Part shown: piece after piece, positions 13,908 through 56,224 of the stretch
Numbering within the stretch: position 1 is the stretch's first letter
Layout of the letters: each line of letters begins with the position of its first letter
Assembly: GCA_001804315.1 (NCBI GenBank)
Contig: MHFT01000024.1
Span: 13,610-77,609, forward strand
Direction of reading: 5' to 3'
From: Omnitrophica bacterium RIFCSPLOWO2_12_FULL_50_11
GTDB taxonomy: Bacteria > Omnitrophota > Omnitrophia > Omnitrophales > Danuiimicrobiaceae
Length of the DNA stretch: 64,000 nucleotides
Made by a program: the position numbers and the translations under genes
The notes under the pieces: model-generated
Database searches by the model: none
The model's input: only the letters and a program-made list of their open reading frames with translations
What the model was told of the DNA's origin: nothing

Positions 13908-14321
13908 TTAAACCAAACGAACATGCGGAATGACATTTTTAGCCACTCGATGCAATCGGCGGTCCGAAGTCACAAAAATTTCAGAGCCCGAGAGAATCCC
14001 AGAAGCGAGCTGGACGGCATCCAAGGTTTTCAAGGCGTGTTGGCGGATGAGCTGAACGGCCTCATGTTCGAGATTTTCATTCCATACGGTCAGGAGAAAA
14101 TAGGCAAAATCCTTTTTAACCTCCACGCGAAGCCACTCAGCCTTTTCACGTGTCAACGTGTCCTCTCGCACGCACCGTTCAATGGTGGCATTCATTTCAA
14201 GCCACGTCACGGGAGAAACTACAATTTCCGCCGTTTTGGAGAGAAGCTTTTCAAAAGCCTCGCTTCCCGGTTCATCCGCATACTTTTTGAAAAGGGACGA
14301 TGTGTCAACAAATAGTCTCAC
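13908..14321 (-). CDS. vapC: PIN-domain toxin (VapC-like)
   Basis: MRLFVDTSSL..., acidic PIN residues and DAVQLASG...FVTSDRRL; 137 aa; 4-nt overlap with the upstream antitoxin gene. Confidence 0.75.
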   Translation of the reverse strand: MRLFVDTSSLFKKYADEPGSEAFEKLLSKTAEIVVSPVTWLEMNATIERCVREDTLTREKAEWLRVEVKKDFAYFLLTVWNENLEHEAVQLIRQHALKTLDAVQLASGILSGSEIFVTSDRRLHRVAKNVIPHVRLV

Positions 14322-14563
14322 CGTTCTTCGTTCCGCATCTGAGACACCGTTTGAGACAGCCCGGCACCTCTGACTTTAATCTTGGAAATTGGCCGCTTCC
14401 AGCCTGGGTGGGCTAGGTTCTCATTATGGGGAATCAAATCTGCAACTGGCGTACGCCGTTCCAGGATCACGATCCTCTCGCCCCGTTTGACCGCCTTAAT
14501 ATAACTGGAAAAACCGCGGGTCAACTGTCTAATCGTCACTTGAGTCATGTTCAAATCCTCCAA
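14318..14563 (-). CDS. Phd/YefM-family antitoxin paired with the PIN toxin
   Basis: MTQVTIRQLTRGFSSYIKAVKRGERIVILERRTPVADLIP is a typical Phd/YefM N-terminus, with tight translational coupling to vapC. Confidence 0.65.
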   Translation of the reverse strand: MEDLNMTQVTIRQLTRGFSSYIKAVKRGERIVILERRTPVADLIPHNENLAHPGWKRPISKIKVRGAGLSQTVSQMRNEER

Positions 14564-14797: not shown

Positions 14798-17700
14798 GTG
14801 GAAGCCAGCTTAAAAGGCCAGGTTTTACCACATAACGCTCGGTGCTTTAGAAAGTCATTTTGGAGAGCGACGGCTTGCGTCGTCTTATTTTCTTTCGCGA
14901 CTACAACTGTCGCTTGGTCCGATCCTGGCTTTGGTTCACTCGACCCCTCTTCCTCTTATTCATCTTTTGCACAACACTCCCTCATTAACCCATTGAGAAA
15001 TATTGATCTCCCAGAGCGTCTTGGGAAGATCGACGAACTGTTCCTCCCAGAGAGAGTCTCTCCCGATTCTCCGTTCGTCGTCTACCTCCAAGACGCTCAC
15101 TCTAACCTCGGGGCTCAGCGCCGCATTGCGGAGGTGGCGCGCGAGCTGAGCGACAAGCTCCAAATCGAGGCCATCCTTGTTGAAGGCGGCACAGGCGAAG
15201 CCGATCTTGCGGATCTAAGATCGTTTCCGGATCAAGAAGTTAAAGAGCGCGCAACCGAATTTTGGCTCAAAGAGGCGATGCTCAGTGGAATTGAACGGGA
15301 AGCGATTGTCGGTCCAAAAGTCTACCGCTTCTTTGGCGTGGAGGACGAAGCACTTTACGAAGCAGGGGGGCGTAATTTTATTGAGGCACAAACCCGCTCG
15401 CAGCCCTTTTTGACTTCGCTCAAACCGCTGGTTCAAGAAAACGGCGAAAATAGGAGGCAATACCTTAACAAGAAGCTCTACGAGTTCGAAGAACGGGTCT
15501 CTCAGTTTGAGGAAAAGAACGAACTGATTGCCCTTGTCAGTTTTCTTGCGAGTAAAGCGCGTAACCTTCACATCAACCGCTGGAAATATCTCGAAATCGA
15601 AAAGTTAATCGACCTCATTCTGCTTGAAATGGAGGGGGGAAATAGTGAGCGCTTTTTCGAAATTCAAGAAATGCTCGATTCAAGAAAACTTTTCCGCGAG
15701 TTGGATTCCTTGAAGTCGGAAGTTAAGGAACGGTTGTTTCAAACGGACGCCGAGCGCGCCATTGACGAAGAGCACCAAGCGCTAAAAGCGTTGCAAGCGA
15801 TCGTATCACTTAAAGCAACCCCCGACGATTTTGATTATTTCCGCAAGCGCCGCGAATTGATCAAGAAGTATGCGCAGAGGGCAAAATTAGATTCCGAAGC
15901 GCTTGCGTCTGCCGAGGCCTTTTACCGATCTGCGCAGGAACGCGATCGGAAAATATTCGAAAATATCCAGGCGATTCTCGGCGAAAACGGAATCAAACGC
16001 GCGATTTTAGTGACCGGTGGCTTCCACGCTCCCGGAATCACAACCGAATTCCGTAAGCACAAAATTCCATACGTTCTGATCTCGCCCAAATTTTCTGACG
16101 AGGACAATTACTCGAACTATCTCGCACGCGTTTCCGGCAAACGTGCGAGTCTCGACGAATTCAAATCGAAGCATTCTAACCGTCATCTGGAAGGAAGCCT
16201 TAACGGAGTCGTCATCCTGAGGCAACGATCCAAAGAGGTGCCGAAGGATCCCGGTCGGGATTCGTCTTCCAAGGAGCCTGCCCTGAGGACGGGATCCTTC
16301 GGGCCTTCGGCCCTCAGGATGACGTCCGAAAGAGGGCTTCCCAATGACGGCGCATCTCATTCCCACGCCGCGGCGCACGCTGTTTTCAACCGCGCCGAAC
16401 TCCGCGTCATTCGTGAGTCATTTGAGTGGTTAAGAGAGGGTGTAAGTTCGGCCGAGAGTGCCACTTCTCCTCAGACAGGTTTACGACGCGCCGAAACGCG
16501 AACAGAAAAACCAAAACTTCGATTTACTTTGCGAAGTTTAATCTTTTGGGTGATTTGCTATGCCTTAATGTTAGCGTTTATCAAAGCGGTTTTTGGCGAG
16601 GTAGAGTGGGGAGAAGCGCTAGGAGTAATGTTAGGTGTAGGTGTATTGGCTAGGCTTTTTCACTTAGAGTATGTGGATCTATTCGACCTGACTGAAGGGG
16701 CTGGCATTGAAAAGTCAATTGACCGCAGATTCGGATTGAAAAGGGAATCACGCGATCTCGATCCGAAAAAGGACGGAGCGGAAAGCGGTCGTGACCCAGA
16801 GGAACCACCGTCCGAAAACGCGGATCCGGACCGCCGCGCAGAGATGCGTAGAGAAATTCAGGTGGAGGCTACAACGGCGGAAGATGGACGGAAAAGCGGC
16901 GACATCGCAGGCGCGGTCGATTCTCTTCCACCTTCCACCCTCCAGCTTCCAGTTTCTTATCGCCAAGCGGAAGTGCGGGCAGAAAGGAACGCCGAAGACG
17001 GAAACAAGGAGCGGAATCAGATTCCGATTTTGGATTCGAGACAGGCCACTCGTTTGGAAAGACCGGGAAGAGCGACGCGAACGGCACTTTCAACTCCCGA
17101 TAGACGGTTTTCGACAAAGAAGAGGCGATCTTCTACCGCAGAGAGACGTTCTTCTACTGCTGAGAAACGGTTGGGAAGGGGCCCAACGCCCTCCACAACA
17201 GCACGAAACTGGCCTCGAAGATCTTCGATCAATGTCCCTACTTCTGTGACGGTATATGAATCAGCCCTTTTTTTTGGCTTGGTAGGATTACCTTTGCTCA
17301 TTTCAAATCTCCTTGAGGATCATTTTGTGGGAACGGAAGGAATGGAAAGCACTGTATCAAGGCTGCCACAAGATGTCAAGGCGCCTTTTCAAAAATCGCA
17401 CCGCGCTGAAATCCGAAGTCGATCCGGCAGGGAGGACGGTTCGGAAATCAAAGCGACAAGCTCAGAGGAAGGACAAAACATCCGATCCGTCCGTTCGGAT
17501 AAAATGCAATGGCTTACAGTTAGCATTTTGCTTCCAGCCGTCACATTGGGCTTAGGGATCGGGGCAACTTTTCTGACCAAACGTTTCGAATCGCTTCCCG
17601 TTTCGATTTTATTCGTGAGGGGGATGCAATATATTTTGGGCACATTCGCAGACATAGGAATGAGTGCTGCTGCGAATTATGTTGGTCAGTGGCGTAAATT

Positions 17701-20700
17701 TAGGAGTAAGGCCAGCTGGGCGAGGGCAGTCCGTTTTGGCTTAATTATCCAAGTCGGTTTCTCGATCTGGTTTTTCGTCAAGCCGCGGCTTAGGATTCGA
17801 CTGGACCACTACGGGTCTGTCATGATGGTTGCTGCCGATACGGTGATTAGTTTGTTTACCCATCGTTTGTTGCTTCATTTGCTATATAGATCCGAGAGGT
17901 TATCTAAAGACGAGATTCGCGAAAAGATGAAAAACACATTTTGGCCTTCTTATGGGATGTTGGCGGGCGTGTGGGGCATTTTCAATTTAGGCATTTATGC
18001 TATTCCAAAAGATTGGGCCTTCGTTATTCCTATTATTTCATCGGTCGTGGCTTTTGTGAACAAAGTTATTTTGTCAGCTTATCTATATCGATCATCTTCC
18101 CGGACACTGATGATGAAGTTTGGGGGGACTTTCGGCTTGGTAGCTCCGATCATAAGCTTTGTTGCGATGGGTTCAGTCATCGGGCTTGACTTTTCATTTC
18201 GGCACGTGATTTTTGGGGGATTGAGTGGATGGTTAGTCGGAAGTGCGTTCGTTTACTTTGCAAAAAAATACTGGGGCTCAATCCAAACTGAAGGTGACGC
18301 GCTTCAAACGGGACCGGCATCTACAGGCAATGTCAATGATTTCCGGCCTGAGGTGCGGGGCAATGAGAAATTGAGTCGCACGCGGTGGGTCCGGCCATCT
18401 TGGATTGATTCGACCAGCTTGTTTTCACCGGCGGAAAGAAAACTCATTCGGGAACGCGGTCAATTGCTCAAGTTCGTGTACCCGCGCTTGAGCGAGAATG
18501 CGAAAAAAGTATTACTTTACCCTTCCTTCTTGCCCGTCTTTATGGGCGTCAAGCCGGCGTACCTGCGTATTACAGACCTTATTACTGGCCGCAAAGAACC
18601 GGATCCTATGATCCTTGCGAGAGAATTGAAAGATATTCCCAAGGCTTGGGATCAACTTGGGATAACGTTCAACGACATCAGAGCGATGTTAGTATTCGAT
18701 GTTTTTGATCAACTCAAGGCGCACATGAAACTTTTAAAAGACTTTGGTGTCCTGCCGCGCTATCCAAACGTCGACCTGATGAGCGAAGAGTGGAAAAGCT
18801 ATCAACCGAGCAAGTGGCAGGCGTTATCGGAAGAATTGGAATTGTTCATTGACGACTTAGACGACAATGTTGAGGTTAGTCAGAGTGCTGGGCATGTTCT
18901 TAACGGCATTGTCTTAGGTTATCCGGTGGCGGAAGTTCAGGCTCTAGGCGAATACATAACGGGCTTTTCGGTGAGTGTAACGCGGCTGTCGACAGAGTTT
19001 GAAGGCATTGAGCTCTTCGTTCGACTAGGAGAAAAGGGAGAAATTGCAGACGAAACGCATCGCTATCTCGCGCGGATGACCGATGCGCTTTATTATGCCT
19101 ATTCACTCCTACAGGAAAATGAGGACTTCGCGAGCATAGCTCAGGAACTCAACCTTCCCCCTAGAGTTCTTTCAGCCGAAGCTCCTGAGTCGATTGTCAG
19201 CCGTGGCGAACTTAGGCAAAGCGATTTTTTCAGGTCTGAGGTGCGGGGAAAAGAAAACGCTCAAGATTTACAATTGTATATTCGGCGTGCTCGCCATCCA
19301 GAGGTTCAAAGCGGAGAAACGAGTGATCAGGCGCCGGATTCTGCCGCCGTCAGCCTGTTGCCAATACCGCGAATTTCTTCTTTGAGCTCAGACCGCGTTT
19401 CTCCAAGTTCAGTCCGAGTATCACGGAGGTCCTTGGAGAGTTTTGACACGGCGTCTTCAAGGCGAGATGCTTTACCGTTGAGGACGTTGATTCGGAGTTC
19501 GATCGTATCTAGCCTTCGGCTGTTGCCGTGGACAGTTACCTCGAGCCGTTCCATCCTCGTATCGAGACCTGACTGGCCCTCAGCGAGGGTATCAAATTTC
19601 TTGTCCAATGCTTCCAGAAGTGTGCCCACTTCCGTGACTGAATATGAATCAGCCATTTTCTTTGGCTTGGTAGGATTACCTTTGCTCATTTCAAATCTCC
19701 TTGAGGATCAATTTGTGGGAACGGCAGGAATGGAAAGCAAGGTATCAGAGCGGCCACAAGATGTCAAGGTGCCTTTTGATGCCGGGCGCAAGACCGGAAT
19801 TGCGAACCCCAAAATCTTCTCCTCTCCCCTGTCGGGGGAGAGGATTTCCGCCAAAGGACGCGGCGGATCCGCCGCGCTGTATGGCGGAAAGGTGAGGGGG
19901 ACGAGTGAAAATAACTTGAACATCCACCCTCACCCAACCCTCTCCCTCCAATGGAGAGAGAGGGGAAAAGACTACAGCTACGGTCTTGTGACTTTTGATG
20001 CCGCCCGGCGTGCGGAGACCCGCGATCGAGTGCGGAATCCGGAGTTCAGGGTGCGGAGTGGACTTAAGTTCGGGAGTTCGCCCGTTCCGCACTCCGCACT
20101 CCGCATTTCCAACTCAAATCGGCGGGCCGAAGCGCGGGCAGAGAGCGATGGAGATCAACTTGTCAAACGATTCACAAGGTTAAGGGGGATGAATCTTTTG
20201 AGAGCTTTACCTGAATTAAACGGCGCGGTTCGACGGAAAGATTTGCCGGCTCGCACTTTGGAGAAGCTGAAAGAACAGCGCCGGATTAGGTATGTTCCTT
20301 ATGTACGCGGAGCGCTCAAAAGGCTCGCACGGAATTTAAGGAGCGAATTTCCAAAGGGGCGTGAGCTCATGAAAGCAGTTGCGGATGCATCAGGTGATCC
20401 TGAACTCTATGACCGTTCGGATGCCCTTCCGTTGCGAATTCTCCAGCAAATCGATCAACGAAAAGCGTGGGAGAGGGTGGCCTCTAACGACAACGTCGCA
20501 GAGCTTCTCCTCCGCGCGAAAGAAGCATTTGATCGGTATATGAGCACTGATGACGCATGGCTTTCAGAACATCTGCCTGAACTCAAGGATAAAAGGGCCG
20601 CCTACTTTTCGGCTGAATTTGCGGTTCCGCCGCTCCCGATATACACCGGCGGAATGGGGGTGCTGGCGGCTGATATCGTGGCGAGCGCGAGTGATCTGAG

Positions 20701-23700
20701 GATTCCGCTCACAGCGGTTGGACTTTTTTATCAGCTTGGCTACTTTCGGCAGCTCATCAGACCGTCTGGCGAGCAAGAGGAAGATAGAAGTTATGCCGGT
20801 ATCCGGAGAGATAAACGGACAGGACGGCCGCTTGATTTGCCGGTCGAAGATCCAAGAACAGGACATCCACTCATCCTGCAAATGAGAATGCCGACTGGAG
20901 GCCGTGTCGTCAAGGCAAAAGTCTGGAAGGCGCGGTTAGGAAAGGTCGATTTATTGCTTCTCGATACCAACTTGAAGGAGGAATGGGCAAACTGGAACAA
21001 CGCGTGGAATGAAGGTACAGACCTCTCTATCACAGAACAAGCTTATCGGGAACATTCGGGAACGCAGGAGCGCATGGAACAATATTTCGTGCTCGGCGTC
21101 GGCGGAATAAAGGCGCTAAAAGCATTAGGTCAAGAACCAGATGTCATCCATCTCAATGACGGCCATCCAGTATTTGCGGCCATTTCTGCTCTTGCCCAAG
21201 CGTTGGCGCGTGTGCCTCGCGCGATAGAAGATCCCAAGCTCCGGTTTGACGCAGCGCTTGAAGTAGTTCGAGCAAAGACGATCTTTACGACCCACACGCC
21301 GGTTCCTGCCGGAAATGAAGCGGTGCCGGAACATGTGATCCGCCCCTTCTTGGAGATACTTTTTCCTGGGGGAAAAGAAGTCGATCAATATGCGGTGGAT
21401 CGAATCCTCGAAATGGGACGGGCAGACGGCAACTTTAACATCACCAAATTTTCATTGCTGGTTTCAGGATTTCACAATGCCGTGAGCAAACTTCACGGCG
21501 AGGTAGCACGCAAGATGTGGCAAGGTCTTTACCCTGCTGTCCCGACAGAAGATGTTCCCATCAAAGCGATTGTCAATTCAGTTCACACGGGCGACGGCGA
21601 GCGGGAAGGAAAGTGGCAAGCTCCCCAAATTGCGGAACTGCTTCAAGAAACCTACCAGACTGCTGAAGTCCAGCGAGTAATGCACCTCGAACGAGACGAG
21701 ATGATGCGGTATCTTACGGATAACAAATGGCTGGACCAAAACGTTCCTGTTTCAACGCGAGAAAAGTTGTGGGCCGTCCATGTCGGTGTTACGAAGCTGC
21801 TCTTTAATGAGGCCGAGAAGCGGTTTACAAGGCAGGCCGCGCGGGGCGACGCGTCGCGGGAAGATTTGGCTTATCTGAAAAGTCTTGACCCACAGGCGCT
21901 CACGCTTGGTTATGCGAGGCGGTTTGCTGGGTATAAAAGGCCTGATCTCATTTTTCTAGATTTGGAGCGCTTAAGATCTATCGCCGCGAAGTCACAAGGG
22001 CTAGTACAAATCATATTTGCAGGAAAAGCTCATCCCAGAGATGACGTGGGCAAACGGTTAGTTGCTCGTGTAAATCAAATAGCGCGTGAGTTACGCAAGG
22101 AAAAGAAAATCAAAGTCATTTTCATCGAGGACTATGACGTAGCGCTGGCTCGATTGCTCGTTGCCGGAGTGCACGTTTGGCTTAACAATCCGATCCTGAA
22201 ACAAGAGGCGTCTGGAACAAGCGGACAGAAAGCACTTCTAAATGGGGTGCTGAATCTCACGATCCCCGATGGGTGGGCAGAGGGCATTGTAGACGGCGTC
22301 AACAGTTGGAAGTTTGGCGGAACGGACGTCGGGGACATCGATGCCAAGGATGCAGCTGCGCTTTACGACAAGTTGGAGAAGGAAGTGATTCCCACTTTTG
22401 ATAACAATCGGGAGGAATGGATCCGCATGATGATCCGGGGCATTCTTTCTATCGCGCATCATCACGGAGGCGAGCGGCTGCTTTTAGACTACGGCCGGGA
22501 ACTGTATGTGCCTGCTGTCAATTCAAGCGCGATGATCACGTCAGGCAACAATATTCTGACAAAGTTGCTTGCATACCGCGCGAAATCTAGCGTGGAAGAA
22601 GGAATGCTTTTTTATCTCCGGCTTCCACCCGAAGCCGAGGCAGAAAGGGTGTATTGGGCAAATAGAATTACGAACTGGGACTCTCAAGAAGATTTCGCGC
22701 TTGAGAAAATATCAGACGGCGTGTGGGCCATCGTGATTCCCGCAGAGAAAGTAGCTGGCGGTGATGTGGACTTTAAATTTATGGTATTTCCGGATCGAAA
22801 AGTCCACGGCGCGAGTAGGCCCATTTGGCTGCGGGGCGGATATCCTAACAGTTTGCGCAGCGGCATTTATCAGAATGGAAGCGTCAAAGTTGACATGGAC
22901 CACCCTTTGTTTCGTCGGGACGCAGCTCGAAAGCTGCTTGCTGCCATTCGCTCCGAAGCGCGGGATGATTGGACTGAGAGACTCGAAAACGTCATGAAGG
23001 AAATGTCCTACGTGCCGAAGTGGTTGAATGATCCAAAGTATTCGACACGTCCCGCTGTATCTCCCAAAGAGATCATTCTTCAGAGCGAAAAATTCGCCCG
23101 TTTCGCCGAAAGCCTCGCACCGGTTTTGACGCAAAAGCGTAGAGAAAAGTACGTCATGCGGCACGGGGTGAATGCATTGTCGCCTCTGAGATCTTTTGAT
23201 TTTCCTCCTCCCCTCCGGGAAGATTCCTACGGCGGCGCCGAAATCATCCTCAAAGAGGGATTTGACTGGAGCCGATTGACAGCCGGCGGGGTCATGGCCA
23301 ACATCGGGCCGTGGGAAGGCACCAAGATAACGGAAGCTGCCATCCTGGAATTTGATTTTGAAGGGGATGTCTTCACGAGCCTCGGCGCCGGCACTGACGT
23401 TAAGGATCAGCTGAGAAAATTTTTCGACACGAGCCTAGACGAAATCCATCTGCCCGAAGAACCACCTTTCTATCGGGGGCGGGGCGATCTTTTTAATTAT
23501 CTCCTCATCCTTTTATTACGTTTGTACGGAATCGACGGCGTGAATTTCGCTTATCCGGCCAAGGAATCCAACGAACCCAGATCTTTCGAATTTCTCGTGA
23601 CCCACCCCAAAGCCATCAGCCACATCCGGCTTGTTACCAGAAAACCCGGGCCAACGATTTCCAAGGAAAGAGAATCCGGCCCCCCCTCCGAAGTGCGTAC

Positions 23701-26700
23701 GGAGATTGTGCCGGAAGAGCTTGTCAAGGTTCGCTCACAGCTTGAGTATGAGCGAAGTGGCACTGGAGAAGTGTTGAATGTAAAGCCGGGAGGAATTCCT
23801 TCAGAATCGCGGAAACGAGGCCGGGAGTTTGCTTTTGACCTACGGCTGAATGCGGAGTCTCAAAACAGGAAAGCGGTCCAAAGAATCGCAGGCTTTCAGA
23901 AGAGGTTAGAAAAAATTGTCACTGCCGCCGAGCTTTTTATTCTTCCGAAAGATGCCTTCCACATTGCGTTAGGTGGCTTCTATCCTGGCGAAAGCTGGGA
24001 TTTGGATTCAAATGGGCCGATAGATTTACCAGAGGATGCGGTTGAGAACGCCCTAACCCTCTTCCAGCAAAAGCTCAATACCGCCTTCAAAGATTCGCCT
24101 GAACTCATCATTGCCATCATCGGCGCAAGGATGACAAATAATGGAACCGTGGTTCTTGATTTGAAAGAACATCATGGTGGAAAACTTGCCGGACTCCGTG
24201 GGCTGGCCTATTCCGCAATGGAGGAAGCGAACTGGCCGCCAGGAAAGTTTCGAATCAACCGCTCGAAGGATGGACAGGTAAGCGACAGCGGAATTGTGAC
24301 CTTGGCCCGGGTCATTCCTCACCCCGACAAAGATGAACCCTTGTCAAGCTCAGAGACGCTAATGCGAGTAGAAGGCAAAATTACCAAAATGGATCGTGAG
24401 CTGAAAAACAGTCCAATCACTCTCCGGTTCACTCAAGAAGATCAAGAAATAGCTCGGCTTGGAACGCGTGTTTTAATCGAAGAGATTGAGGGTTGGGCAT
24501 CCACAAATGATTTTTTGAAAGAGCGTGCGGATGAAATCGTCAAGCTTACTGCGAATGGTTTTGCCCACGAGACCTACGAAGCGGTCCGCCAAATAGAAGC
24601 AATGGATTGGGGAAGAAGAAAAGGGATTTATTCTCCTCAACAAGTTCAAAAAGATCTTCAAGGCGAACCTCCAGGAAGTCTATTGATGCTAAAGAGGCAA
24701 AGGCACAATCAAATACTTGCCACGCACGGAGAAAGGGTTGCACTTCTTGAGCTCGAATTGCGTCATTTGAGCGTCTTGACACTTTCACTCGCGTTAAAAG
24801 GAATCCCCATGGATGTGGCAAGGAGCAGCCATTATTACTATCTTTTACTTGAGATTGAGCGGTTCAAAAATTCCAACGGTATCGAGGGCCTTAACCCTGA
24901 GTTCATTTCTCCGGCGCAACAGATACTTGTCTTGAACGAGATAGCGAAATCTCAACTTCGTGGTGCACGGGAGCAACTTGGCAGACAAATCGCAGAGCAC
25001 TTAGACACCATTAGTTTTCGCTCGTCTGCCGAACGACTGTTACCCGAAATAGAAAAAATCATCGCGAGCTGGGAGGAACGTTATGTGAGAACAAAGCTTG
25101 AGCATGCTGTGTTGCAGGTAATTGGTCCCCTGAGACTAACTCGGGCGGCAGGAAAAAAGGTAAAAGATGAGATATCCCGTAGAAAAGTCGAGATCGTCGC
25201 ACACGTGGTGCGACAACTCACCCCAGACGTATTAAGTGGCCGTCGCATAACGACAAATAAGATTCGCGACGCCCTTAGAAGTAGCGGTCTCAGTTTTGAC
25301 CGTGTGAACCGGCTCAATCGTCCGGTGCGGTCCGGTATCACGAAGAAAGTCGACGAAATAGTGTTCAACATTGAAGAAAGCACGCACCGCTTGAAATTTC
25401 GTTCTGCGTTCCAAAACCCCCGCTCGGAAGCAAGGTGGCTCATAATGGCTGCGAAGATCGTTCTTATGGTCGCGGTTTTCGGTGCTCTGGGCTATTGGGC
25501 GCTCCGCGACACCAAAGATGATTGGGCCAAGGAGTTTAGTCAAATGACGGAACTTATTAAGGAGACCACCTCGACAGATGTTTTAATTGACATCGTGCGA
25601 GATACTCAAAATAACAGCATCCACCGCTGGTATGCGGTAAGACGATTAGTCGAAGCAGCCACAGTTAATGAATCTCTGAGAAAGGAAGTGGTGCCGGTGC
25701 TCATGGAAGAAATTACCCGCTATCTCAAAAAGGAGCTGGATCCACAGACGATGGTTGCGTCATGGGGGGTCGAGGTTGAGGCGATAGACGGTCTTGCCAA
25801 GTTCAAGGCGACGCGAGCAATCAACTTATTGAGACAAGTTTACACGGACGGCTCGGTCGATCAAACGGTGCGTGAAGCGGCGAGGGGAGCGGTAGAACAA
25901 TTGGAAGAGACACGATCCGGCCGCTCCAGAGTACAAGAAGGTCAATTGGACAGAGAAGAAAAATTGAAAACGTCTGGCCCGAGGAGCTCAAGATCCGAAA
26001 TTCGTAGTGAAATCGTCACTCCAAAGACGAAACTTGAAGAGAGGGGTACCCTTATTTTCCGCCGTATTCGGTATGAAATAGAGCAGATCATCCACGTGGC
26101 TGGAGATGATTTCATCCTGTTAAGAGCGAAAAAGAAGTACGCAGGGCAAAAGAGACAAAGGAGGGTTGACCGTCCCATTCATATTTCCAGAAGTAAGAGC
26201 GAGGTTACGAGCGGCCCTCTTTTACGAGTTTCCCTCAATGATGGAAACTGGAGTTACATTTCACCCAAGCGTGCTGAGGTGCGATCGCCGCAACAGAAGA
26301 AAAAAATAAAATACCCTGCCATTCATATACCCCTTGGAACGTATTTAAGGGTTTATTCTGGAATTTTTCTTCCGGCGATCTTTTTCATACTTAATGTATT
26401 AACCGTCGTAAAACTCGGGGCCCAGCTGGCAGGGGCGAAGATTTTGAATGGCCTCCCATTGGACGCTGTGATCACCGCATACGGGATTATTTTAGTCCCA
26501 GCCATCATCCATTTCGCAATGGAAAAATCTGTTTGGCTTCGGAAACGACAGCGTGCGCGAGAAGATCGGAGAAAAGCCGCTGGTATGCGCGGTGAGTCAC
26601 GCTCCCAGTCTGTTGAAGGCCGTGAACGTGCGAATGGAGATATTGGAGAACCAAAACAATCTGCAGTTCGAGACTCGGCGGACCGTGCGGAACTGCGAGC

Positions 26701-29700
26701 AGAATGGAAAGGTAAGAGTATTTTCGAAATTGGATTCGAAGCCAGTCTAATTCCTCGGGAGTTTAATTTGTTAGTGGATGCCGCGGTTAAGGGATTTAGC
26801 AATCTCAACGAGGCCGAACGAAATCAAGTGAAAAAGGTTCTTCGGAAGATTTTCGAAAAATTGGGCTTGCTCGAAACGGAAAAGCAAGAGGAGCGGCGCC
26901 GATTCCTGAGTCAAATCAGCGCGCTCATGATAAAGCTCAAAGCGCGGGGAAAGTTAGACAAATTAAAGTCAACGTTTCAAAAGAAATACTTGGACGAGAC
27001 ATCGTTCAAATTGGAGCGTGAGGTCAAAGTGTCAGGGCTTCAAACCGGTGATCAGGTACAGGAAGCAGCGGCGGAAATATCCGATGAAGAGCCTCTGGGC
27101 GCTTTGAGAAAATTGCTTGCTAAAAAACCCCGTGGGATTGAGGAAGCATATGCCTTGTCTATTTCACGAGGCGCATCTTTAGAAGAGGTTCGGAGGACAC
27201 TCAAAGAAGCTGGCTATGAGATGACGCAATGGAGACGCGACGGGTTGCTCGGCCTCTTTCGATTTAAACGAAATGTGTGGTTGAAAGTGCAAGAGCCCCG
27301 CCGGGCCGAGGTGCGGCACGAGCTGGTGCAGAGTGTGGAATTCGGAGTGCGAAGCAGACGCGAACGAGACGACTCGATCATTCCGTATTCCGCACTCTCC
27401 ATTCCGCACTCGGAAACACGGGCTGAGATGCGGGGACAATTGGAAGAAGATTGGAAAATAGCACGTTCTGCTGTGTGGTTTTTTTTGAGGAGAGGGGTTT
27501 ATTTTAAGCAGGACATCGAAGATGCTTTTCAGGATATCCATCTTGCGTTTGCGGAGGAGAGGCAGAAGGGAAAACCCTTATCAGAACTGGAGCTGAGAAA
27601 GATTGCTCTGGCCGCCCTTTCAAAACATGTGAGGGATTATCATAAGTACAAGCGTGTGGTTAGAGGGTTTCAAGCTGCATATAGATCGCTCGTCACAAAG
27701 CGCCGCGGCCCACGTCCTATGCTTGATGATGTCGATCTCTTGATACCTGAGGTAGGGGAAGAGACATTTGGGGACAGGCTTAGATCTCATTTCAGAAGGC
27801 GAGGGTGGTCCCAGCGACGAGGAGCGCGTGAATTAGGATTTTCGTACGGCTCCATTAAACCGTGGATATCAGGTAAGATTCCAAGCCCATTCTTTGTGAA
27901 ACGGCTTGCGACCGCACTGGACACGACGGTAAGTGAGTTGATGATAGGAATACCTAGGGAAGAGTTGCTCGCCATCAGGATTGAAGATGAAGAAAGTGGC
28001 GAATACAGAAAAATCTTGGGGTTGAAGGTCAAAGTTTTGAGATATGAAAAAGGATGGACAAAAAGCAGGCTTGCTCGCGAGGTGGGTATCAAGGATAACA
28101 CCATTATCAGACTGGAGGCAGGCGAACCTACGTTTCCCTATCGGTACATTGGAAAACTTGCCGAAACGCTGGGTACGACGATAGGCGATCTTATTGCAGG
28201 AATGCCTGACGAAAAAATAATGGCTATTCGTGTTTTTGACGAGAAAAGCGAGGAGCATCGTGAACTCTTTGGGCTCAAATTAAGAGTCCTCAGATATAGG
28301 CGAAGATTATCTCAGACCGGTTTCCAGGGCCAGAGTAGCACCTCCGCATGGGAAAGTGGGAAATGGTTCCCCTATCCCAGAAGCATGAAAATCATTGCGC
28401 GCAACTTAAAAACAACTGTGAGCGAACTTTTAGCCGGCATACCTGAAGAGAAGTTAATGAGCATGCGGGTCCGAGACGAGAAAAGCCGGGAAGCAAAACA
28501 AATTCTTGGATTAAAGATCAAAATTTTTAGATACAAACGGGGTTGGACCTTAACCGAACTTGCTCAAGAAATGCACGTGCATGTTGATACGGCTTCAGAT
28601 TGGGAAGCCGGACTGCACTTCCCTGCGATACGGCATTTCAAACAGCTAGCAGAACGACTGAATTCTACGGTGAGCCATCTTCTGGTGGGTTTGCCCGCAG
28701 AGGAGATAAAAACAAGATTAAAAAATGGCAATGACCCGGACTATGCCGACCTATTCAATCTCATGATCCGGGTTGTAAGATACGAGAACGGTTGGTCATC
28801 GGGCAAGCTCGGCGCTGAAGTTGGGATTCCTCGGGTAACCATCGATGGATGGTCATGGAGTCGAGCAGTTCCCGCCCCTAACAATTGGAAAAAATTGACT
28901 ACTGGAAAAGGGCACGTTCTTTTCGGTGACTACCTTCCTCCGTCACGGCCGAAACCCACAGAGCTTGATGAGACAGAACGTAAAGTTCATGAACTGTATC
29001 AACAACTAGGTCGATACAGTTCTGTCGCCAGAGCAATGGGATGGCAAGGAGCAGCAGGCGGCGTGAGGGCCCGGCACATATACCTGCGGTCTCTTCGGAA
29101 ATTGGGGGCTCAGAGCCGCGCTGAGGTGCGGAACGAACTGGTGCGGAATGCGGAATTCGGAGTGCGGAGTGGACGTCAACTCGAAGACTTGATCATTCCG
29201 CATTCCGCCCTCCCCATTCTGTACTCGGAACCACGGCCTGAACTGCGGATGGGGCTGGAAGAGATCGCGATCTATGAGGAAGACGTGGATCTCGAAGCGT
29301 ATCAGCGCGTGATGCGTTCTGCCGAGGTCCGTTTCTTAACGCGTGAGGAGGAAAAGATCCTTTTTCGTGCCCTTCATGCTCGAAATCTAAAAGGAGAAGA
29401 GCGCAGGACTCTCTTTGACTTTCTAGTCTTGAAATATCTTCCTAGGATTAAACGCGTGATCCGTAAACTCGTACGCGGTGAGGGGCGAGACAAGGACAAT
29501 ATGTATCAGGACGGTTCTTTGGGGTTAATGGAAGCAGTCTGTCGTTTTGATTACCGTCTCGGGACGAGGTTTGGTACATTTGCCGACTGGTGGATATGGG
29601 GCAAAATTCTAATCGGTTTGAATGACTTAGCCACTGGAAAGTTACCGTCTCAGGAGCGGGAACTCGTCCCCGCAATCTTGAGCTCTCAACAGGAATTAAC

Positions 29701-32700
29701 ACAGCTTTTCAAGCGTGAACCCACCATGGAGGAATTGGCCAAAGCGCTAGGGGAAGAGGAAAAAACGGTGATCCGCATCCTTTCCTTCTTCTCACGGGCA
29801 AAGTCCTTAGATGCCCCAGCAGGGAACGGTGAATTAAACCGCTATCAATTCCGCTCGGATCCAAAAGCGGAAACTCCGGAGGCGATCGCGGTTCGTGAGG
29901 AAGAACACCGCGAGATAGTCCCAGAGATTTCAAGAAGGCTAGCCCTTCTTTCCTCTTACCAGCAGCTCGTCATCAAACTGCGGTTTGGAATTGGCACGCA
30001 AAAAGAGGGCGGTTATACACTCGACGAGATTGGAACAATGCTGGGGGTCACAAGAGAGAACATCCGTCAGATCGAAGATCGTGCAATCAAAAATATGCGC
30101 AGCAACACTATTTCAGACGCCAAGACTCGTCCCGTATCCACTGAACATGGTGATGTTTACCTTGTGGAAGTCGTCGGCATAAAGCCGGATCATCCTGTTT
30201 TTGAGGACATGCGGCTCAAGCCACTTATCGAGATAAAAGAGCTTTACGAAAGGGGCTTTTTTGCCAATTTCATTCCGGCACAAAACTTGACGATGGGCAG
30301 GGTCAGAAATGTTAAGCCTCGTGTCGGCTACCGGAGACGCGTAGCGGCAACGGCCCGAGCAGCCGCTCACCGTGCTGAGGCGCGCAGTGGAAGCGTGAGG
30401 GAGTATGCGACGTGGGATCACTTCCATAGCTTGATTCATGTCCTCGCGATAGATAGCGAGGAAAAGAATCGGCTGGAAGCGTATAAGCGATTGAGAGAGC
30501 TAGCATTGTTTCAACCGTTCCACTTTGGCCTTGCTTTGGTGCGGCATGTCGGAGGTGAAATAGCTTCTTATGCTAAATCCATTTTGCTGGAGGTTGCGTG
30601 GGAAAACCCAGAGATCATGACTGGACCCATTGTGAGCTCACTTGAAGATCCGAGTCGGAATCCGCATGCTGAAGAACTTCTCGGCCAGTGGATTGACCTC
30701 ATCATCAAAAAGAAAGATCGAAACAAACTCAGTATTGTTGCCCGGCCTCTGATCGGCATCTTAGCTCTTGAGATAGCCCGCCCTGCTGCCGAAAGATTGA
30801 TTCAAAAAATTGCTCTTTTTGATCTCGGTGTAATTGTGAATCGATTCATGGGGGCACTCAAAGATCCCGCGAGGCGGGCGATCGTCGGGCACCTCCTTGT
30901 AGTCATTAGCCGTTATTCTGCTGGCGCAGCAAAGTTCGTCACCGAAACTGTCATTGAAAATCTTTATGACAATGAAATCGCCGAATACCTTATAGAAGTA
31001 CTTCTTGAGATTTCCAAGGATGCGGGCGAAAAGACGGTAAAACATATTTTGTGGTTATTAATGGATGTTTTGCATTTTGAGGATTACCTGAAGCGGGTTC
31101 GTTTTGTTCCGTTCAAGGAACGGCTAAGAGAAAATAAGGGAGATTTCCGTCGAAACGCAGCCGCGGTTTTATCGAGAATGCTGGTGACATATCCGGTCGA
31201 AACAGTGCACATTGTAGTCGGCCATGCTTTGAATCATGACGTCCGGCAGTACGCCGACGAAATCCTCGCTGAAATCGAGGATAAACAACCCCAGATTCTT
31301 ACTGATTCCTATGTGGCAGCTCAGGGCCGAATGAGTCCAAATGAATTTGTGGAAAGCGAGTTGATTCGTCTCGCTGCATCACATCGAGGGCCTATCCTCA
31401 ACTCGCTCATCAAATCGCTTAAGAGACAATCAAAAGCTCCGGCCTTAGTTTCGCTTCTGATAAAGATGGCGCGGTCTAACTCTGAGCTTTCAGGTTTCAT
31501 TCAAGAGCGCCTCAAGTCTGCGATGTCTGAGGTGCCGACGCATCGGAACCTCGATCGCTTCGGTCAACAAATTCTTGCCCAAATCCAGTCCCGCAATGAA
31601 GTGCGATTGGGATTAAATTTGGCCAAGGAGAGAAAAGTACTGCTCTCGGGAAATGCCAGCCGTGCGGAGGTTATTCAAAATGATGAAAACGGGCACAGCC
31701 CGATATTGAGGAATGACGATCGGACGGCTGACGCCAGGCTTGATGTAAACAAGGTGGTCGCCAGTTTGACGCACACGCCGAAAACCGGCCAATTCGAAGA
31801 CTCGACAAAGGTTTTGATACGGAATCGGAGTGATGCGGCTCATGGAGCAGGAGACGATTTAGAAAGTGACTTCGCTATGCTCGGTAGCAATAAGAGGAGG
31901 AGAAGTCCATTCGGTTCCAGCCGGATCTCGGGCAATGAAACCTTCTTCTTGAAGAATGTCCTTGAGCGTTCCCATTCTGGAACTTTCCTCAAGGAACAGC
32001 CGAACCGCTTCCATAAGCCTGCGCCGCGCATCGTCCACCGTATCTCCGCAGCTGGCAACGGACAATTCTGGGCAGACACTGACAAACGTCGGCCCCTCTC
32101 TAAAAATCAAGGAAGTGAATTCAATCTTTCTCATGGCATTCAAACTATAACACAGAACCGGGATGCCGTAAAGCAGCCCTCTTACCGCTCTGCAGTGCGT
32201 GAAAAATTCAGGGGAGAGGCGAGAGAGGAGAGGGAAGAGAAAAAGCGCTTACCTCTTACCGCTTCTCTCTCGCCTCTCACCACTCACCTCTCCCCTGATT
32301 CTTCCCGCCCCGCGGCACGCAAACGAGTGCGAAGCGGACATGAACTCGAAGACTCGATCATTCCGCATTCCAGACTTCCCAATCCGCACTCGGAAACACC
32401 GGCTGACGCGCGGGATCTCGTAGTTGCGCATGACGAATTGCCAGTGACGAAAGGTAGAAGACCTTGGCAGTACGAACGCGCGGATCTAAGGCACCGAGCG
32501 CGCTCTAGAGGTGTGAGTGCTTTTCGCGGCGGCGGCCCTGCCAATCGAGAAAGACAATTCCGAGAATTATTACAAGCAGGATCACAGCAAGAAACACAAC
32601 ATTCGCTGTTGCTCCATCCATTTTTGTTTCCTCTCGTCAGGATTGATCCAGAGAATGAAGGCAAAAGCAACAAGATAAATTATAACCCCGGCCACCAGAA

Positions 32701-35700
32701 GAAACAAGACAGGTCCGACTTGTTGGGCGCATCCGACTTCATACAGTTGTCATCGCGAGGCCAGCATCCCAAGAATGGGCTGAAGCAATACGATGCCTCC
32801 GTCATTACGAGGAAGCGTAGGGGCAATGACGAAGTAATCTCGGATGCGAGATTACTTCGTCATCCCTTGGGGTTGCTTCCTCGCAATGACGGTCAGGATG
32901 CAATTGCTTCGTCAACGCCTGGTCCGCTGCCTCGCGATAACGTTGGCATTGCTGCATCGAGCGGGATACGCGCCGCGGTGCAGAGTGGACAGGAACTGGA
33001 AGACTTGATCATTCCGCATTCCGCACTCCCCATTCCGCACTTGGAAACACGGCCTGAGGTGCGGAGCGGGGACAAATCACGAGGGGATGCGAGCGCTCCT
33101 CCTGACCGTGTCAAACAATGGGAAGAGAATATCGGTGCCGTGAAAAGGATGTTGAGCAAGTTTTTTCAGGAAGGCAATGACCTAAATTATGCCTTGCTTT
33201 TGTTTGGAAACATCCTCGTGAACGATCCCGTTAGAATCGATTACATGGAGAAATTGATGAATGCTTTGAAGAAACAAAAGGGGCCTCGTAGAGACAAAAA
33301 CGCAAGACACGGCGTAGAGCTTACGCCTGACGATCTTAGAGATTTGCTCGATTGGGTAATCGGAGACGTCGCCTATTTAAGCTCTCCGCCTAATAGGAAG
33401 GACGACGGACCTGTTATGTGGATGTGGGTTCCATACAGAGACCTACCCGAAGAACTCATAACCGAAATTGTGAAATATCGAACGCCTAAAAAGAATTTTG
33501 ATGATGCGGCTGACGCATGGAGAGCATATCAGGCGCAGGGTGATAAGAAGCTAATCGGATTTAAGTCATTCTATGATAAGCACTTTAAAAAAAGAGGGGC
33601 GATGGCGTCTGGCGATCAGGCTTTTGATTCGTATTCGTTTCATTTTTTACCTACGAGAAAGCATGATGATTTGAAACTAGGGATTGACACTGACTGGGCC
33701 GGCAGAGGATTGGGCAGAGGATTGGTTGCGTTCAGGGACGTACCTCGAGGTCGAAAACTTGTTGTAAATCGGCTCCGGCAATCTGAACAGGTTTATGGAA
33801 TGTCTCAACATTTGTTTTACATTGAATTAGAGCACGTCAAAAATCGGCTTATTGTTCACACCCACCAACACGGCGGTAGTCGGACGAGTCAATTGAGGAC
33901 TTCCGATCGTGAGTTGTATGATTACTTGAAACATGTACCGGATAAAGCCTTCGCTTTGTTAATAGACCGACTGGATGAGGTACTTGCAGCTTTAGGATGG
34001 TCGGCAGCCGATCAAATCCAGGATTTTGAGATTGTCTCAGCCAGCAAGGTCGCTTATGAATGGTCCACGGTCTCGGCCTCAACGGTTATGACAGCTTATA
34101 TGGATTTTCCACAGCGCCTTGGATTTCATATGGTAGAACGTAAGCCCAATGAGATCCGGAATGCGCCAGGCGACCAAGCCATGTGGAGAGAAAGCGTGTG
34201 GTACTGGAGCCGGCCGCTTGCGGATATGAAGAAACCTCCGAAAGTTCAGATCGAGACGCCGTCTTCTTTCCGTCCGGAAGTGAGAATCCTGGAGACGCGG
34301 GCTGAGGTGCGGGAAACAAAAGTAAGAAGCACGAAGCTGGAAGCAGGAGCGCAAAAGTCTCTCGCTTCAGGCCTCGCGTTTCACGCCGGCGGCAAAGCCG
34401 CCTCCCGCTCTGAAATGCGGATAAATCCGAGGAGCACTGAGGAATTGCGCGAACAGTTGATGACTCTTGTAAGGGAGATCGTCATTCTGCTTGATCTTCT
34501 CACGGTAGATCCCCGTCGGGAGAACCGGAAGGAACTTGAAACCGAGATTACGGAGCTGAGAAGGCAGCTCAGTGAACAAAAAGAGTTTGTGAACGAAGAT
34601 CAACATCAAATCTTTGACAAGCTTGTGGGAGAAGTTAAATCGCTCATTGATTTAGTATCGGCTTCCAAGCTGCCTCTTTCTACTCAATTGATACGAGAAC
34701 ATACTCAGCGTATTTACAGTAACATCCAAGAGCTGGAATTTAAGCCTACGGGGGAACAAAAAGATGCAATAAGTGCGGAAACAGAACGCTTCGAGCTCGC
34801 GAAGTTGATTAGAGCTAAGGATGTCGAGGGTATTGCTGACATGCTTTCGAGAAGCGACGAGGTGCCAATAAAGGTAGATGCGATCAGGGCACTGGGTCTA
34901 TTGAAGGCCAGTCAATATGCAGATTTGATCGTTCCATACTTAACCTTTTTCACACCACCCTTCGGCGAGGGTGTGCGGCTGACTGCAATTACTGCATTAA
35001 GAAATTTAAATGCAAAACAATATCTAACTGAGATTGCGAAGAAATTCACAGATCCCACACTAAGCGTTCGCAGTAGGGCAGCCGGAGTGATTGGGGCATT
35101 CGGGGATCCAACATACATCCCCCAACTGAAGGAACTATTGAATGACAAATCCGCCGCGGTGCGGCTTGCAGCGGCAAAAGCTTTGCAGAAATTCGGAGTG
35201 GACATTCCTGAAGAATACCGCTCCGAAGCGCGGAGCAATGATGATGTCTTTATGAGGATCGCAGCTTCTTTGCCAGAGGAGTGGCGGGAAAAAATTCAAG
35301 CAGTGCAGACAAAACCAGCTAACAGGGATGTTTTCCCCTCGTGGATACAAGCGCTGAATGAAGCGGAAGCGACGCGCCTACACTCCATTCTAACGGATCG
35401 CGTGCCAGTAGATGTAATTGAGTCCTTTTTCCTGAACAGCCCGCACTTTCTTGCAAGCGATCCCGATCAGCGTCATCAAGTGGCAGTTTCGATTGCAGAG
35501 ACGCTAGAGGATGTACGTCGGCTTTTAAGATCTTGGATTGAAGAGCTGGATCGCGACCCGCATGCGCGACGTCCTGCAGCGATCCCTGCGCGCCAGATGA
35601 CCACCCCTGCTGAGACAAGAGGTGTCCGGCCGCAAGAAGAACGAGAAGAGTGGGTATCAGAGGAGGAAGCTGCCAGACGCGCGCGCTTCATTGAGTGGGC

Positions 35701-56208: not shown

Positions 56209-56224
56209 AGCCAGCCCTAGTCGT

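Follow-up and report, generated by a model that had tools for sequence, protein, structure and literature searches.

In viral polyproteins one open reading frame (ORF) encodes many mature proteins, and a motif that varies between lineages is found at every junction within unstructured flanks, as with the 3C sites of picornaviruses and the NS2B-NS3 sites of flaviviruses. MARTX toxins have conserved ends and swappable effector domains, which are freed at short inter-domain sites, Leu-(Ala/Ser/Gly); about four to five of these sites occur per toxin, and the set of domains varies between close strains. In polymorphic toxins a single demarcation motif per protein, VENN in CdiA or PxxxxDPxGL in Rhs, stands before a single C-terminal toxin, and the Rhs motif is self-cleaved. 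Precursors processed at dibasic or Arg sites (the gingipains RgpA/Kgp/HagA, fungal Kex2-processed repeats and nematode polyprotein allergens) consist of repeat units and use the secretory pathway. The present work deals with a giant ORF of Omnitrophica bacterium RIFCSPLOWO2_12_FULL_50_11, whose product is divided by a recurrent pentapeptide, R-x-E-x-R. It was studied within a stretch of 64,000 nt (contig MHFT01000024.1, positions 13,610 to 77,609 of the forward strand), which is called the window; all coordinates refer to it. The pentapeptide marks the borders of exchangeable modules and may well be a site of proteolytic processing, by which the product of the ORF would be a polyprotein.

Like viral polyproteins, the Omnitrophota ORF combines many proteins in one reading frame with a recurrent short junction motif that differs by lineage. 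Unlike them, it is chromosomal and lies among housekeeping genes, its modules are mutually unrelated, hypervariable and reshuffled between sister species, no protease module was found in it, and cleavage is here inferred. With MARTX toxins it has in common that a giant bacterial protein with conserved ends contains internal, interchangeable and unrelated domains. In contrast, Pfam scans of all segments gave neither RTX-type repeats nor Peptidase_C80, the signal peptide is N-terminal, whereas MARTX toxins carry a C-terminal signal for the type I secretion system (T1SS), and the motif is R-x-E-x-R with up to about 27 sites. Among the genes around the giant ORF none of a T1SS was seen, and membership of the MARTX toxins was rejected on these grounds. 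In function, viral polyproteins and MARTX toxins are its nearest counterparts. Sanchez-Pulido and Ponting reportedly placed MARTX domains within the Tiki/EreA superfamily in 2013. As in polymorphic toxins, a short conserved peptide at the border of conserved and variable sequence coincides with an exchange breakpoint, but up to 27 motifs per protein separate modules of all kinds, and neither immunity genes nor toxin domains were seen. The Arg-processed precursors likewise carry an Arg-containing site between their units; here, however, the units are unrelated whole proteins and the central Glu is required.

Giant genes of the Archaeovorin and Dockerin types were described for Omnitrophota by West-Roberts et al. 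(bioRxiv 10.1101/2023.11.21.568195), and 'multi-enzyme metabolic cluster' giants of this group were reported in a later preprint (bioRxiv 10.64898/2026.06.07.730766). These two studies concern proteins of at least 10-30 thousand amino acids (kaa). Post-translational cleavage was speculated on, and no cleavage points were reported; whether giant Omnitrophota proteins act as a single chain or are cut is an openly stated question in the literature. In the text of the 2026 preprint 'cleav', 'motif' and 'polyprotein' never occur. According to text searches, neither preprint describes the head family, the pentapeptide classes or the Ala-Ala tail presented below. Literature searches on Omnitrophota polyproteins and cleavage sites and on bacterial polyproteins gave nothing relevant. 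The ORF resembles the 'multi-enzyme' giants in its many Pfam families on one chain, in its signal peptide and transmembrane segments and in its origin from Omnitrophota, but with 7,625 amino acids (aa) it is below the 10,000-aa threshold of that catalogue. It differs from the Archaeovorin and Dockerin types, which exceed 30 kaa, as Pfam detected no dockerin or carbohydrate-binding repeats and no C39, S8 or SecA-like domains. Polyprotein processing as such is known, but no bacterial family is known that is chromosomal and hypervariable and bears a junction code specific to the lineage.

The 11-mer and the pentapeptide

A recurrent in-frame 11-mer had been noted for the giant ORF in a first-pass annotation of the window. 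This 11-mer, CTGAGGTGCGG, was found five times (at 18348, 19236, 29121, 33054 and 34302, all on the + strand), compared with 0.04 copies expected from dinucleotide-preserving shuffles, and is thus real. With up to one mismatch ten matches were counted (1.07 expected). Nine of them lie on the + strand within the giant ORF and in a single codon phase, (start-14798) mod 3 = 1, so that the proposed bias of strand and frame was borne out. One of the nine, at 31527, is in frame but reads SEVP and is not a motif site. The tenth match (50958-50968, - strand) is no more than chance would give. The positions given in the annotation were correct within 0-8 nt. Its copies near 20118, 29240 and 34408 are at least two bases off the 11-mer, yet they encode RAEAR, RPELR and RSEMR.

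The DNA 11-mer is the least-diverged version of the peptide motif R-[A/S/P]-E-[V/L/M/I/A/T]-R, namely the subset of sites written GCT/CCT/TCT-GAG-GTG-CGG. The giant ORF contains 24 copies of the strict peptide R[ASP]E[VMILAT]R; 2,000 composition-preserving shuffles of its protein gave 0.44 on average and at most 4. When K/H was also accepted at position 1 and F at position 4, the count rose to 25 sites (0.87 expected). The remaining five frames of the ORF DNA hold two copies of the strict peptide altogether. Sites were present in the range of 16840 to 34420 first assigned to the motif, but those of the peptide reach further, from 16391 to 37066. Confinement to the giant ORF holds for the 11-mer, with its lone outside match at chance level; the peptide, however, is also found as in-frame RAEAR in the ORF 752-3859. 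These two are the only real ORFs of the window with the in-frame peptide motif.

The codons of the motif vary freely. All six Arg codons (CGC, CGG, CGT, CGA, AGG and AGA) are used at both Arg positions, position 2 is written with all four Ala codons as well as TCN and CCN, Glu is encoded by GAA (14) or GAG (11), and eleven different codons occur at position 4. This synonymous variation indicates selection on the peptide and not on the DNA. Judged by the sequences, purifying selection acts on the pentapeptide at the protein level. As a separate observation, AGA and AGG are rare at the two motif arginines, with 5 of 49 codons compared with 32% of the Arg codons of the ORF, unlike in the related loci L006 and L007, where both are common at these positions. 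The shortage may mean that some junctions descend from a recent common ancestor, or that the nucleotides are weakly constrained.

Modules and relatives

The sister protein P0011 (4,646 aa; head 75% identical) has eight blocks in common with the window protein, in a different order. At six orthologous junctions of the two proteins homology begins or ends exactly at the pentapeptide. For example, the sequences that follow ...RPLADMK(K/N)PPKV(Q/H)IETPSSF-R(P/A)EVR in the window protein and in P0011 are unrelated. Conversely, unrelated sequence precedes R(P/A)E(V/M)R-GN(E/N)...WVRPSWIDS(T/K)SLFS. Both proteins keep R, E and R, and it is at the variable positions of the motif that they differ.

The motif was examined further in 100 proteins of the family that are 1,500 aa or longer, i.e. 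99 database proteins (P0011-P0157) and the window ORF. At least four R-x-E-x-R sites each were found in 47 of them, hereafter the R-class, with a total of 434 sites compared with 14.7 expected. P0063 (6,928 aa) contains 21 sites, 17 of them exactly RAEVR, and P0062 contains 17. The logo of the 434 sites (in %) reads R95 at position 1, S64, A32 and P4 at position 2, E100 at position 3, L35, V32, A12, T8 and M7 at position 4 and R100 at position 5. Adjacent residues lean weakly towards small ones, with A/S before and S/A/T after the motif. The flanks beyond them hold zero sequence information; they are rich in S, P, A and T and poor in Y, C, H, M, L and F. The median spacing of the sites in the 47 proteins is 298 aa, which is about the typical length of a bacterial protein, and only two sites fall in the first 450 aa.

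For all pairs within the R-class 159 high-scoring segment pairs (HSPs) outside the head were obtained, and 25-28% of their ends lie within 10 aa of a site, compared with 6% for random positions. Splitting of the 47 proteins at the motif gave 429 modules in 303 clusters, 257 of them singletons, and the head alone was universal. As far as homology indicates, evolution proceeds by whole modules, which the motif delimits.

Among the modules of the window protein, none of the 25 sites checked lies inside a Pfam-defined domain. The phosphorylase module matches PDB 9l6i (852-aa chain; residues 43-738; E 5e-92), and its unaligned ends are about as long as the remaining termini of 9l6i. The first sigma-70 module matches RpoD/SigA entries of the PDB with E 1e-27 up to the C-terminal end of these chains. 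According to the translation, several membrane modules open in a signal-anchor-like manner after the motif, with basic residues and then a hydrophobic helix. For most of the remaining modules Pfam and NCBIfam scans gave no match. Word-indexed searches for stand-alone homologues of the tail module and of the module aa 6090-6492 found none. NCBIfam was also tried on the orphan modules, and the only result, a sub-threshold match of the tail module, was taken as noise. A degenerate site, PAETR, is present at 35606 ahead of the second sigma-70/HTH module.

Modules of the relatives include HPr, phosphoenolpyruvate (PEP)-utilising, RluA and DnaJ modules. In the three closest loci from GTDB genomes (L005, L006 and L007) code 11 gives uninterrupted ORFs, and the codons of the motif again vary freely. 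The HPr module is bracketed by the motif in these loci, and the same chains hold PEP-utilising and pseudouridine-synthase modules. In a set of 80 GTDB loci, chosen by Q[DE][AV]H[AC]N..., R-x-E-x-R was not enriched except in these three. The motif is thus restricted to a clade and is not family-wide.

Further members lack R-x-E-x-R and have other pentapeptides in the same role. G-x-S-L-G occurs 27 times in P0048 (7,979 aa; 0.3 expected) and at least four times in eight further proteins, and G-F-G-[A/S/T/V/N] recurs in five proteins. Carriers are P0048, P0056, P0072, P0031, P0028, P0071, P0101 and L056:9965-21685; P0023, P0027, P0055, P0094, P0097 and L042:9821-. The flanks of these sites are unrelated and their spacing is protein-sized. 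P0048 also contains repeated mini-modules of 24-57 aa between the copies of its own motif.

The locus and its further elements

The features of the giant ORF and of its small paralogue are listed in Table 1.

Table 1 Features of the giant ORF, its modules and junctions, the family-C elements and the paralogue (window coordinates; aa positions of the junctions refer to the giant ORF product)
Feature	Coordinates	Strand	Remarks
Small family paralogue	752..3859	+	1,035 aa; same head domain; RAEAR at 2621-2635 (aa 624); ends ...IQAAA-COOH
Giant ORF	14798..37675	+	7,625 aa; GTG start; about 25-30 modules split by R-x-E-x-R
Head module	14798..16393	+	aa 1-532; N-terminal hydrophobic signal/anchor and conserved domain
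RAELR junction	16391..16405	+	aa 532-536
RAETR junction	16487..16501	+	aa 564; then basic stretch, then hydrophobic helix, signal-anchor-like
RAEMR junction	16835..16849	+	aa 680
RAEIR junction	17402..17416	+	aa 869; multi-pass membrane module next
RPEVR junction	18344..18358	+	aa 1183; exact 11-mer; P0011 homology starts here (site 3290, RAEMR)
RSEVR junction	19232..19246	+	aa 1479; exact 11-mer; 30 nt paralogous to 18344 junction (family D5)
RAETR junction	20009..20023	+	aa 1738; left flank of family-C-like hairpin unit
Family-C-like element	20024..20122	+	in-frame 33-aa mini-module; motif-to-motif 114 nt; -61.9 kcal/mol, z -2.7
RAEAR junction	20123..20137	+	aa 1776; phosphorylase module next
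Alpha-glucan phosphorylase module, full-length	20138..22948	+	aa 1781-2717, 937 aa; Pfam DUF3417, Phosphorylase
RSEAR junction	22949..22963	+	aa 2718
RSEAR junction	25421..25435	+	aa 3542; hydrophobic helix WLIMAAKIVLMVAVFGALGYWAL directly after
RSEIR junction	25991..26005	+	aa 3732
RAEVR junction	26270..26284	+	aa 3825; one-mismatch 11-mer; orthologue P0011 site 2701 (RSEAR)
RAELR junction	26684..26698	+	aa 3963; orthologue P0011 site 2840 (RSEAR)
RAEVR junction	27302..27316	+	aa 4169; one-mismatch 11-mer; orthologue P0011 site 3038; left flank of family-C copy 1
Family-C copy 1	27317..27418	+	in-frame HELVQSVEFGVRS...IPYSALSIPHSET; 117 nt motif-to-motif; -60.8 kcal/mol, z -2.9; families D1/D2
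RAEMR junction	27419..27433	+	aa 4208; one-mismatch 11-mer; right flank of family-C copy 1
XRE-type helix-turn-helix (HTH) array module	27434..29116	+	aa 4213-4773; Pfam HTH_31, HTH_3, three stretches each
RAEVR junction	29117..29131	+	aa 4774; exact 11-mer; left flank of family-C copy 2
Family-C copy 2	29132..29233	+	117 nt motif-to-motif; -64.6 kcal/mol, z -4.2
RPELR junction	29234..29248	+	aa 4813; right flank of copy 2; Met directly after
Sigma-70 module, regions 1.2 to 4.2 and ~85-aa tail	29249..30370	+	aa 4818-5191; Pfam Sigma70_r2, r3, r4
RAEAR junction	30371..30385	+	aa 5192
Family-C partial, right arm	32325..32414	+	degenerate end PADAR
Family-C partial, intact right arm	32931..33049	+	directly 5' of 33050 junction; absent at orthologous P0011 junction
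RPEVR junction	33050..33064	+	aa 6085; exact 11-mer; orthologue P0011 site 3890 (RAEAR)
RPEVR junction	34271..34285	+	aa 6492; orthologue P0011 site 4290 (RAEVR); homology stops exactly here
RAEVR junction	34298..34312	+	aa 6501; exact 11-mer
RSEMR junction	34406..34420	+	aa 6537
HEAT-repeat module	34421..35218	+	aa 6542-6807; Pfam HEAT_2, HEAT_PBS, HEAT
RSEAR junction	35219..35233	+	aa 6808
Second sigma-70 and XRE HTH module	35621..37051	+	aa 6942-7418; Pfam Sigma70_r2, Sigma70_r4, HTH_3
RSETR junction, last	37052..37066	+	aa 7419; tail module next
Tail module	37067..37672	+	aa 7424-7625; Rossmann-like; ends ...QVAAA-COOH

The longest ORF in the other five frames over the region has at most 152 aa; hence the region is not merely poor in stop codons. 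An ENA contig, k141_2237235 (L002), carries a gene call of 7,625 aa with the same first 5.7 kb, and over this part four assemblies are 99.9-100% identical. Strain variation in cassette content was considered for L003 and rejected, as its split is a 10-N scaffold gap and the sequence is otherwise 100% identical. A 24-nt palindrome (TTTCCGCCAAAGGACGCGGCGGAT/ATCCGCCGCGCTGTATGGCGGAAA) at 19845-19890 is the spot of a 10-N gap in ANAN16-1 scaffold_928, where 33 nt are replaced. Two further repeats were observed inside the ORF. A direct repeat of 167 nt (17223-17389 and 19611-19777; 89-90% identical) duplicates the hydrophobic peptide …TSVTVYESALFFGLVGLPLLISNLLED(H/Q)FVGT… in two different modules. 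An imperfect inverted repeat at 32203-32303, with 41-nt arms of 78% complementarity, one purine-rich and the other pyrimidine-rich, reads REEREEKKRLPLTASLSPLTTHLSP in frame and adjoins the downstream partial family-C copy.

The head contains a conserved domain at aa ~70-460. Its alignment shows invariant Q98, H101, Q107, E129-G130, E182, R382 and GGFH407-410. The AlphaFold 2 (AF2) model has a mean predicted local distance difference test (pLDDT) score of 75.6. The best Foldseek matches of this model were EreC (6xcs/6xcq), EreA-like 2qgm, ChaN (2g5g) and HopBA1, all of them weak with E of 0.02 or worse. Pfam gave 16.3 bits for Erythro_esteras (cut-off 26.4) and 13.1 bits for Cofac_haem_bdg ('Tiki superfamily, ChaN'; cut-off 27.7), the latter matching 3 of 10 members. 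The modelled fold is probably EreA/ChaN/Tiki-like, and H101, E129, E182, R382 and GGFH407-410 are candidates for the catalytic His, Glu, Arg and GxxH signature of this superfamily.

A HMMER search of 1.84 billion representative proteins detected 7,052 homologues of the head domain at E<=1e-3. The top 150 mostly have 2,000-8,000 aa, and the head is always N-terminal. Homologues of aa 1-532 are named Candidatus Omnitrophica or Omnitrophota. In GTDB genomes 206 head-domain loci were found, nearly all in metagenome-assembled genomes of Omnitrophota, and many open ORFs exceed the 10-kb flank. No relative was found on viral contigs of IMG/VR, and a viral origin was rejected for this reason. In nine loci (L009, L015, L024, L026, L067, L071, L075, L076 and L083; 1 to ~9800) the head-domain gene has directly 5' of it the end of a second giant ORF, which is longer than 3,000 aa. 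Such upstream ORFs in many Omnitrophota genomes indicate that giant ORFs are often arranged in tandem.

The tail module of about 200 aa forms the extreme C-terminus in nine close relatives and is preceded by the motif or a variant in eight of them. Its AF2 model is Rossmann-like alpha/beta (pLDDT 81.6) and gave nothing significant against the PDB. Of the 99 database proteins with 1,500 aa or more, 71 have the C-terminus [A/S]-Ala-COOH, compared with 1.3% expected from composition; long members with another ending are probably cut off at contig ends. Stand-alone head-domain proteins of about 500 aa have this ending in 3 of 27 cases. The two endings in the window are …VAAA-stop at 37664-37672 and …QAAA-stop at 3845-3856. 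The Ala-Ala ending is similar to the last residues of the ssrA degradation tag (…LAA), and by this analogy it could be a degron or an export signal.

The small paralogue lies 11 kb upstream of the giant ORF and its C-terminal half is an orphan. It was asked whether the two proteins represent one carrier with inserted cassettes; this was rejected, because they share the head and not the C-terminal halves (BLASTP E 0.067; no match of hidden Markov models). Their C-termini have the terminal Ala-Ala alone in common. With its size the paralogue could serve as a minimal experimental system.

Family-C is a hairpin element with arms of about 31 nt built of ATTCCGC/ACTCCGC heptamers. Five copies were found in the window, all in the giant ORF. 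The three complete copies carry the 15-nt motif on both sides, at distances that are multiples of three and free of stop codons, and each unit adds 38-39 codons, one motif copy included. These three are predicted to fold stably, with energies of -61 to -65 kcal/mol and z-scores of -2.7 to -4.2. This flanking supports the first-pass suggestion that some motif copies are the terminal direct repeats of such elements. The units show features of miniature inverted-repeat transposable elements and repetitive extragenic palindromes, as they are short, multicopy and non-autonomous with inverted-repeat arms and flanking direct repeats. A weak site, HSETR, is present at 27407 within copy 1. At the P0011 orthologue of the junction at aa 6085 family-C is absent, which indicates a lineage-specific insertion.

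The exact 11-mers at 29121 and 33054 are family-C ends, the one at 34302 lies in a stretch of 23 nt like the right end of family-C (D4) and is a solo footprint, and those at 18348 and 19236 come from a pair of junctions with 30 nt of paralogous sequence. Family-C ends and paralogous junctions thus account for the DNA identity of some motif copies. The view that the motif consists of element footprints is valid for this DNA-identical subset, but leaves the 25 codon-divergent sites and the 434 in relatives unexplained. Family-C may be a mobile element that is tolerated for bringing its own junction site. The N-terminal extension of P0126 contains IPHSALRIP, by which the heptamer repeat may also occur in other Omnitrophota.

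The neighbouring genes are ordinary chromosomal ones: GcvT, a MutY-like glycosylase, IlvD (dihydroxy-acid dehydratase), transketolase, ThyA, DHFR and Tad-pilus genes. No recombinase or integrase adjoins the giant ORF. A PIN-domain protein (13908-14321, - strand) is located directly 5' of it on the opposite strand, with a 76-aa ORF (~14318-14548, - strand) as partner; the two are probably a toxin-antitoxin pair. A Tad/Flp-type pilus cluster (~54000-60700, - strand; Tad, Tad_C, two T2SSF and T2SSE) follows 17 kb downstream and may be relevant to a surface-attached or host-dependent lifestyle.

Probable processing of the chain and other explanations

A protease or cleavage site of a polyprotein was one of several meanings of the motif considered in the first-pass annotation. 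This reading is the best supported by conservation at the peptide level, the position at module borders, the orthologous junctions and the homology breakpoints, and we consider it probable that R-x-E-x-R is a proteolytic processing site and the ORF a polyprotein. The fixed frame of the ORF consists of the signal/anchor with the EreA/ChaN/Tiki-like head, followed by variable modules and by the tail module that ends in Ala-Ala-COOH. The middle is hypervariable, with many modules representing complete proteins such as phosphorylase, sigma factors, HTH regulators, HEAT and membrane proteins. The pentapeptide acts as punctuation between independently evolving modules; it would be recognised and the chain cut into separate proteins, as a guess after the second Arg. 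Family-C has colonised several junctions in frame and bracketed by the motif.

Several points weigh against processing, which is inferred from the sequences. A search for the protease, as proposed in the annotation, found none among the motifs or the internal modules of the ORF. HExxH, GDSG and GTSxA are not present in the giant ORF, and besides the head no module is common to all 47 R-class proteins, by which a built-in protease module was rejected. No head column co-varies with the motif class. The head as a specificity-determining protease gained no support, since no column parts the R-class from the members with G-x-S-L-G or G-F-G and the classes are interspersed in head clustering; the tail module was rejected as a protease, as its model is Rossmann-like and matches nothing significantly in the PDB. 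An M24 was the only peptidase among the genes called in the neighbourhood (~0.4-20.5 kb and 38-59 kb). Furthermore, a signal peptide on the head is hard to square with the many modules of cytoplasmic appearance, which is a conflict of topology. Some sites are 4-40 aa apart and would free tiny peptides, stand-alone homologues are not known for most modules, the placement of the head in the EreA/Tiki superfamily has weak scores, and in about one third of the long family members no clear motif could be recognised.

The lack of a detected protease would fit a linker motif that remains uncut, i.e. a short linear docking or modification site in the flexible linkers of an intact multi-enzyme giant, bound or modified by one partner for all sites (for example a chaperone, a scaffold, a modifying enzyme or a factor for secretion or insertion). 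Module borders, linker-like flanks and clade variation agree with it equally well, and the 'multi-enzyme' giants were treated as single membrane-anchored proteins (bioRxiv 10.64898/2026.06.07.730766). Nevertheless, we regard an uncut linker as rather unlikely. Sigma factors, HPr-like and signal-anchor-like membrane modules are hard to imagine tethered in a chain of 850 kDa, the small residues S/A/T after the second Arg are typical of a scissile bond, and mini-modules of 5-35 aa between two sites would hardly be meaningful as docking spacers. Together with the switching of motifs between clades, which resembles the co-evolution of proteases and their sites, these points favour cleavage over the linker. 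The motif could also be a seam, left or required by the insertion and shuffling of modules or family-C in the style of target-site duplications or demarcation motifs and kept only for the frame. The exact homology breaks between the window protein and P0011 are in line with such a joint, as are the family-C units bracketed at 114 or 117 nt, the junctions paralogous over 23-30 nt (D4, D5) and the scarcity of AGA and AGG at the motif arginines. A neutral seam would decay, however, whereas R, E and R are held at 434 sites in proteins whose heads are mostly 26-34% identical to the query, with synonymous change free. Orthologous junctions vary elsewhere and keep R-E-R, and a recombinase is missing beside the ORF. 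As the function of the motif a cassette joint is therefore quite improbable; it is compatible with cleavage and may describe the origin rather than the function.

A signal in DNA or RNA is very improbable. Uptake, Chi-like recombination, internal initiation at a Shine-Dalgarno-like GAGGTG and RNA processing were considered, as the exact 11-mer contains GAGGTG and is strand-specific, and hairpins are found near some copies. But this 11-mer is present at 5 of 25 sites only, the codons vary freely, and the motif is confined to one strand, one frame and one gene family, by which the recombination or uptake signal suggested before was dismissed. In the relatives the codons TCN-GAA-YTN are unlike a Shine-Dalgarno sequence, and the G.SLG and GFGA classes have no common nucleotide signal. 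A Met within 20 aa after the junction was counted on the translation for 6 of 25 sites (~6.5 expected), giving no signal of retained starts. Promoter-like and terminator-like sites are not in excess within the ORF, and an Rfam scan of the window gave zero families. Release during translation, with the nascent pentapeptide causing a skipped peptide bond or a stop and restart as in 2A, would need no protease and would suit an ORF with no internal stops and clade-specific motifs. Known signals of the 2A type comprise about 18 conserved residues ending in NPGP and act with the eukaryotic ribosome. Here, in contrast, five residues are conserved between uninformative flanks, and three chemically unrelated motifs would need one ribosomal effect, which makes this mechanism highly improbable as well. 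Finally, a protein with 9.5% R and 8.3% E might contain the motif by chance or composition, or the ORF might be an artefact of assembly. With 24 sites compared with the shuffles, the same 5' part in four assemblies, the full length also on one ENA contig and the recurrence in 47 proteins, the probability of this is next to nothing.

With processing at the pentapeptide as the preferred reading, a wider one can be put forward tentatively: Omnitrophota chromosomes might use virus-like polyproteins, in a family of more than 7,000 members with exchanged cargo, a lineage-specific 'cleavage code' and a dedicated protease. The code would be R-S/A-E-x-R, G-x-S-L-G or G-F-G-A between dozens of unrelated and rapidly exchanged cargo proteins, the EreA/Tiki-like head would be secreted or membrane-anchored, and an Ala-Ala tail would close the chain. 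Host-dependent nanobacteria could in this way deliver matched effectors (sigma factors, regulators and enzymes of sugar metabolism) to prey or host, and hairpin elements in frame would persist in such genes because they bring a cleavage site with them.

The junction motif is the first concrete candidate for a cleavage code of the Omnitrophota giants and makes the question of cut or intact chains directly testable. It also allows giant ORFs to be divided in silico into modules for structure prediction. If cleavage does not take place, the motif still marks module borders in a very large uncharacterised family. If it does, the family would be a natural source of orthogonal pairs of proteases and sites for polyprotein engineering. 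It would then also be a cellular counterpart of viral polyprotein expression and, in bacteria predicted to be predators or parasites, a hypervariable cargo locus of a new type.

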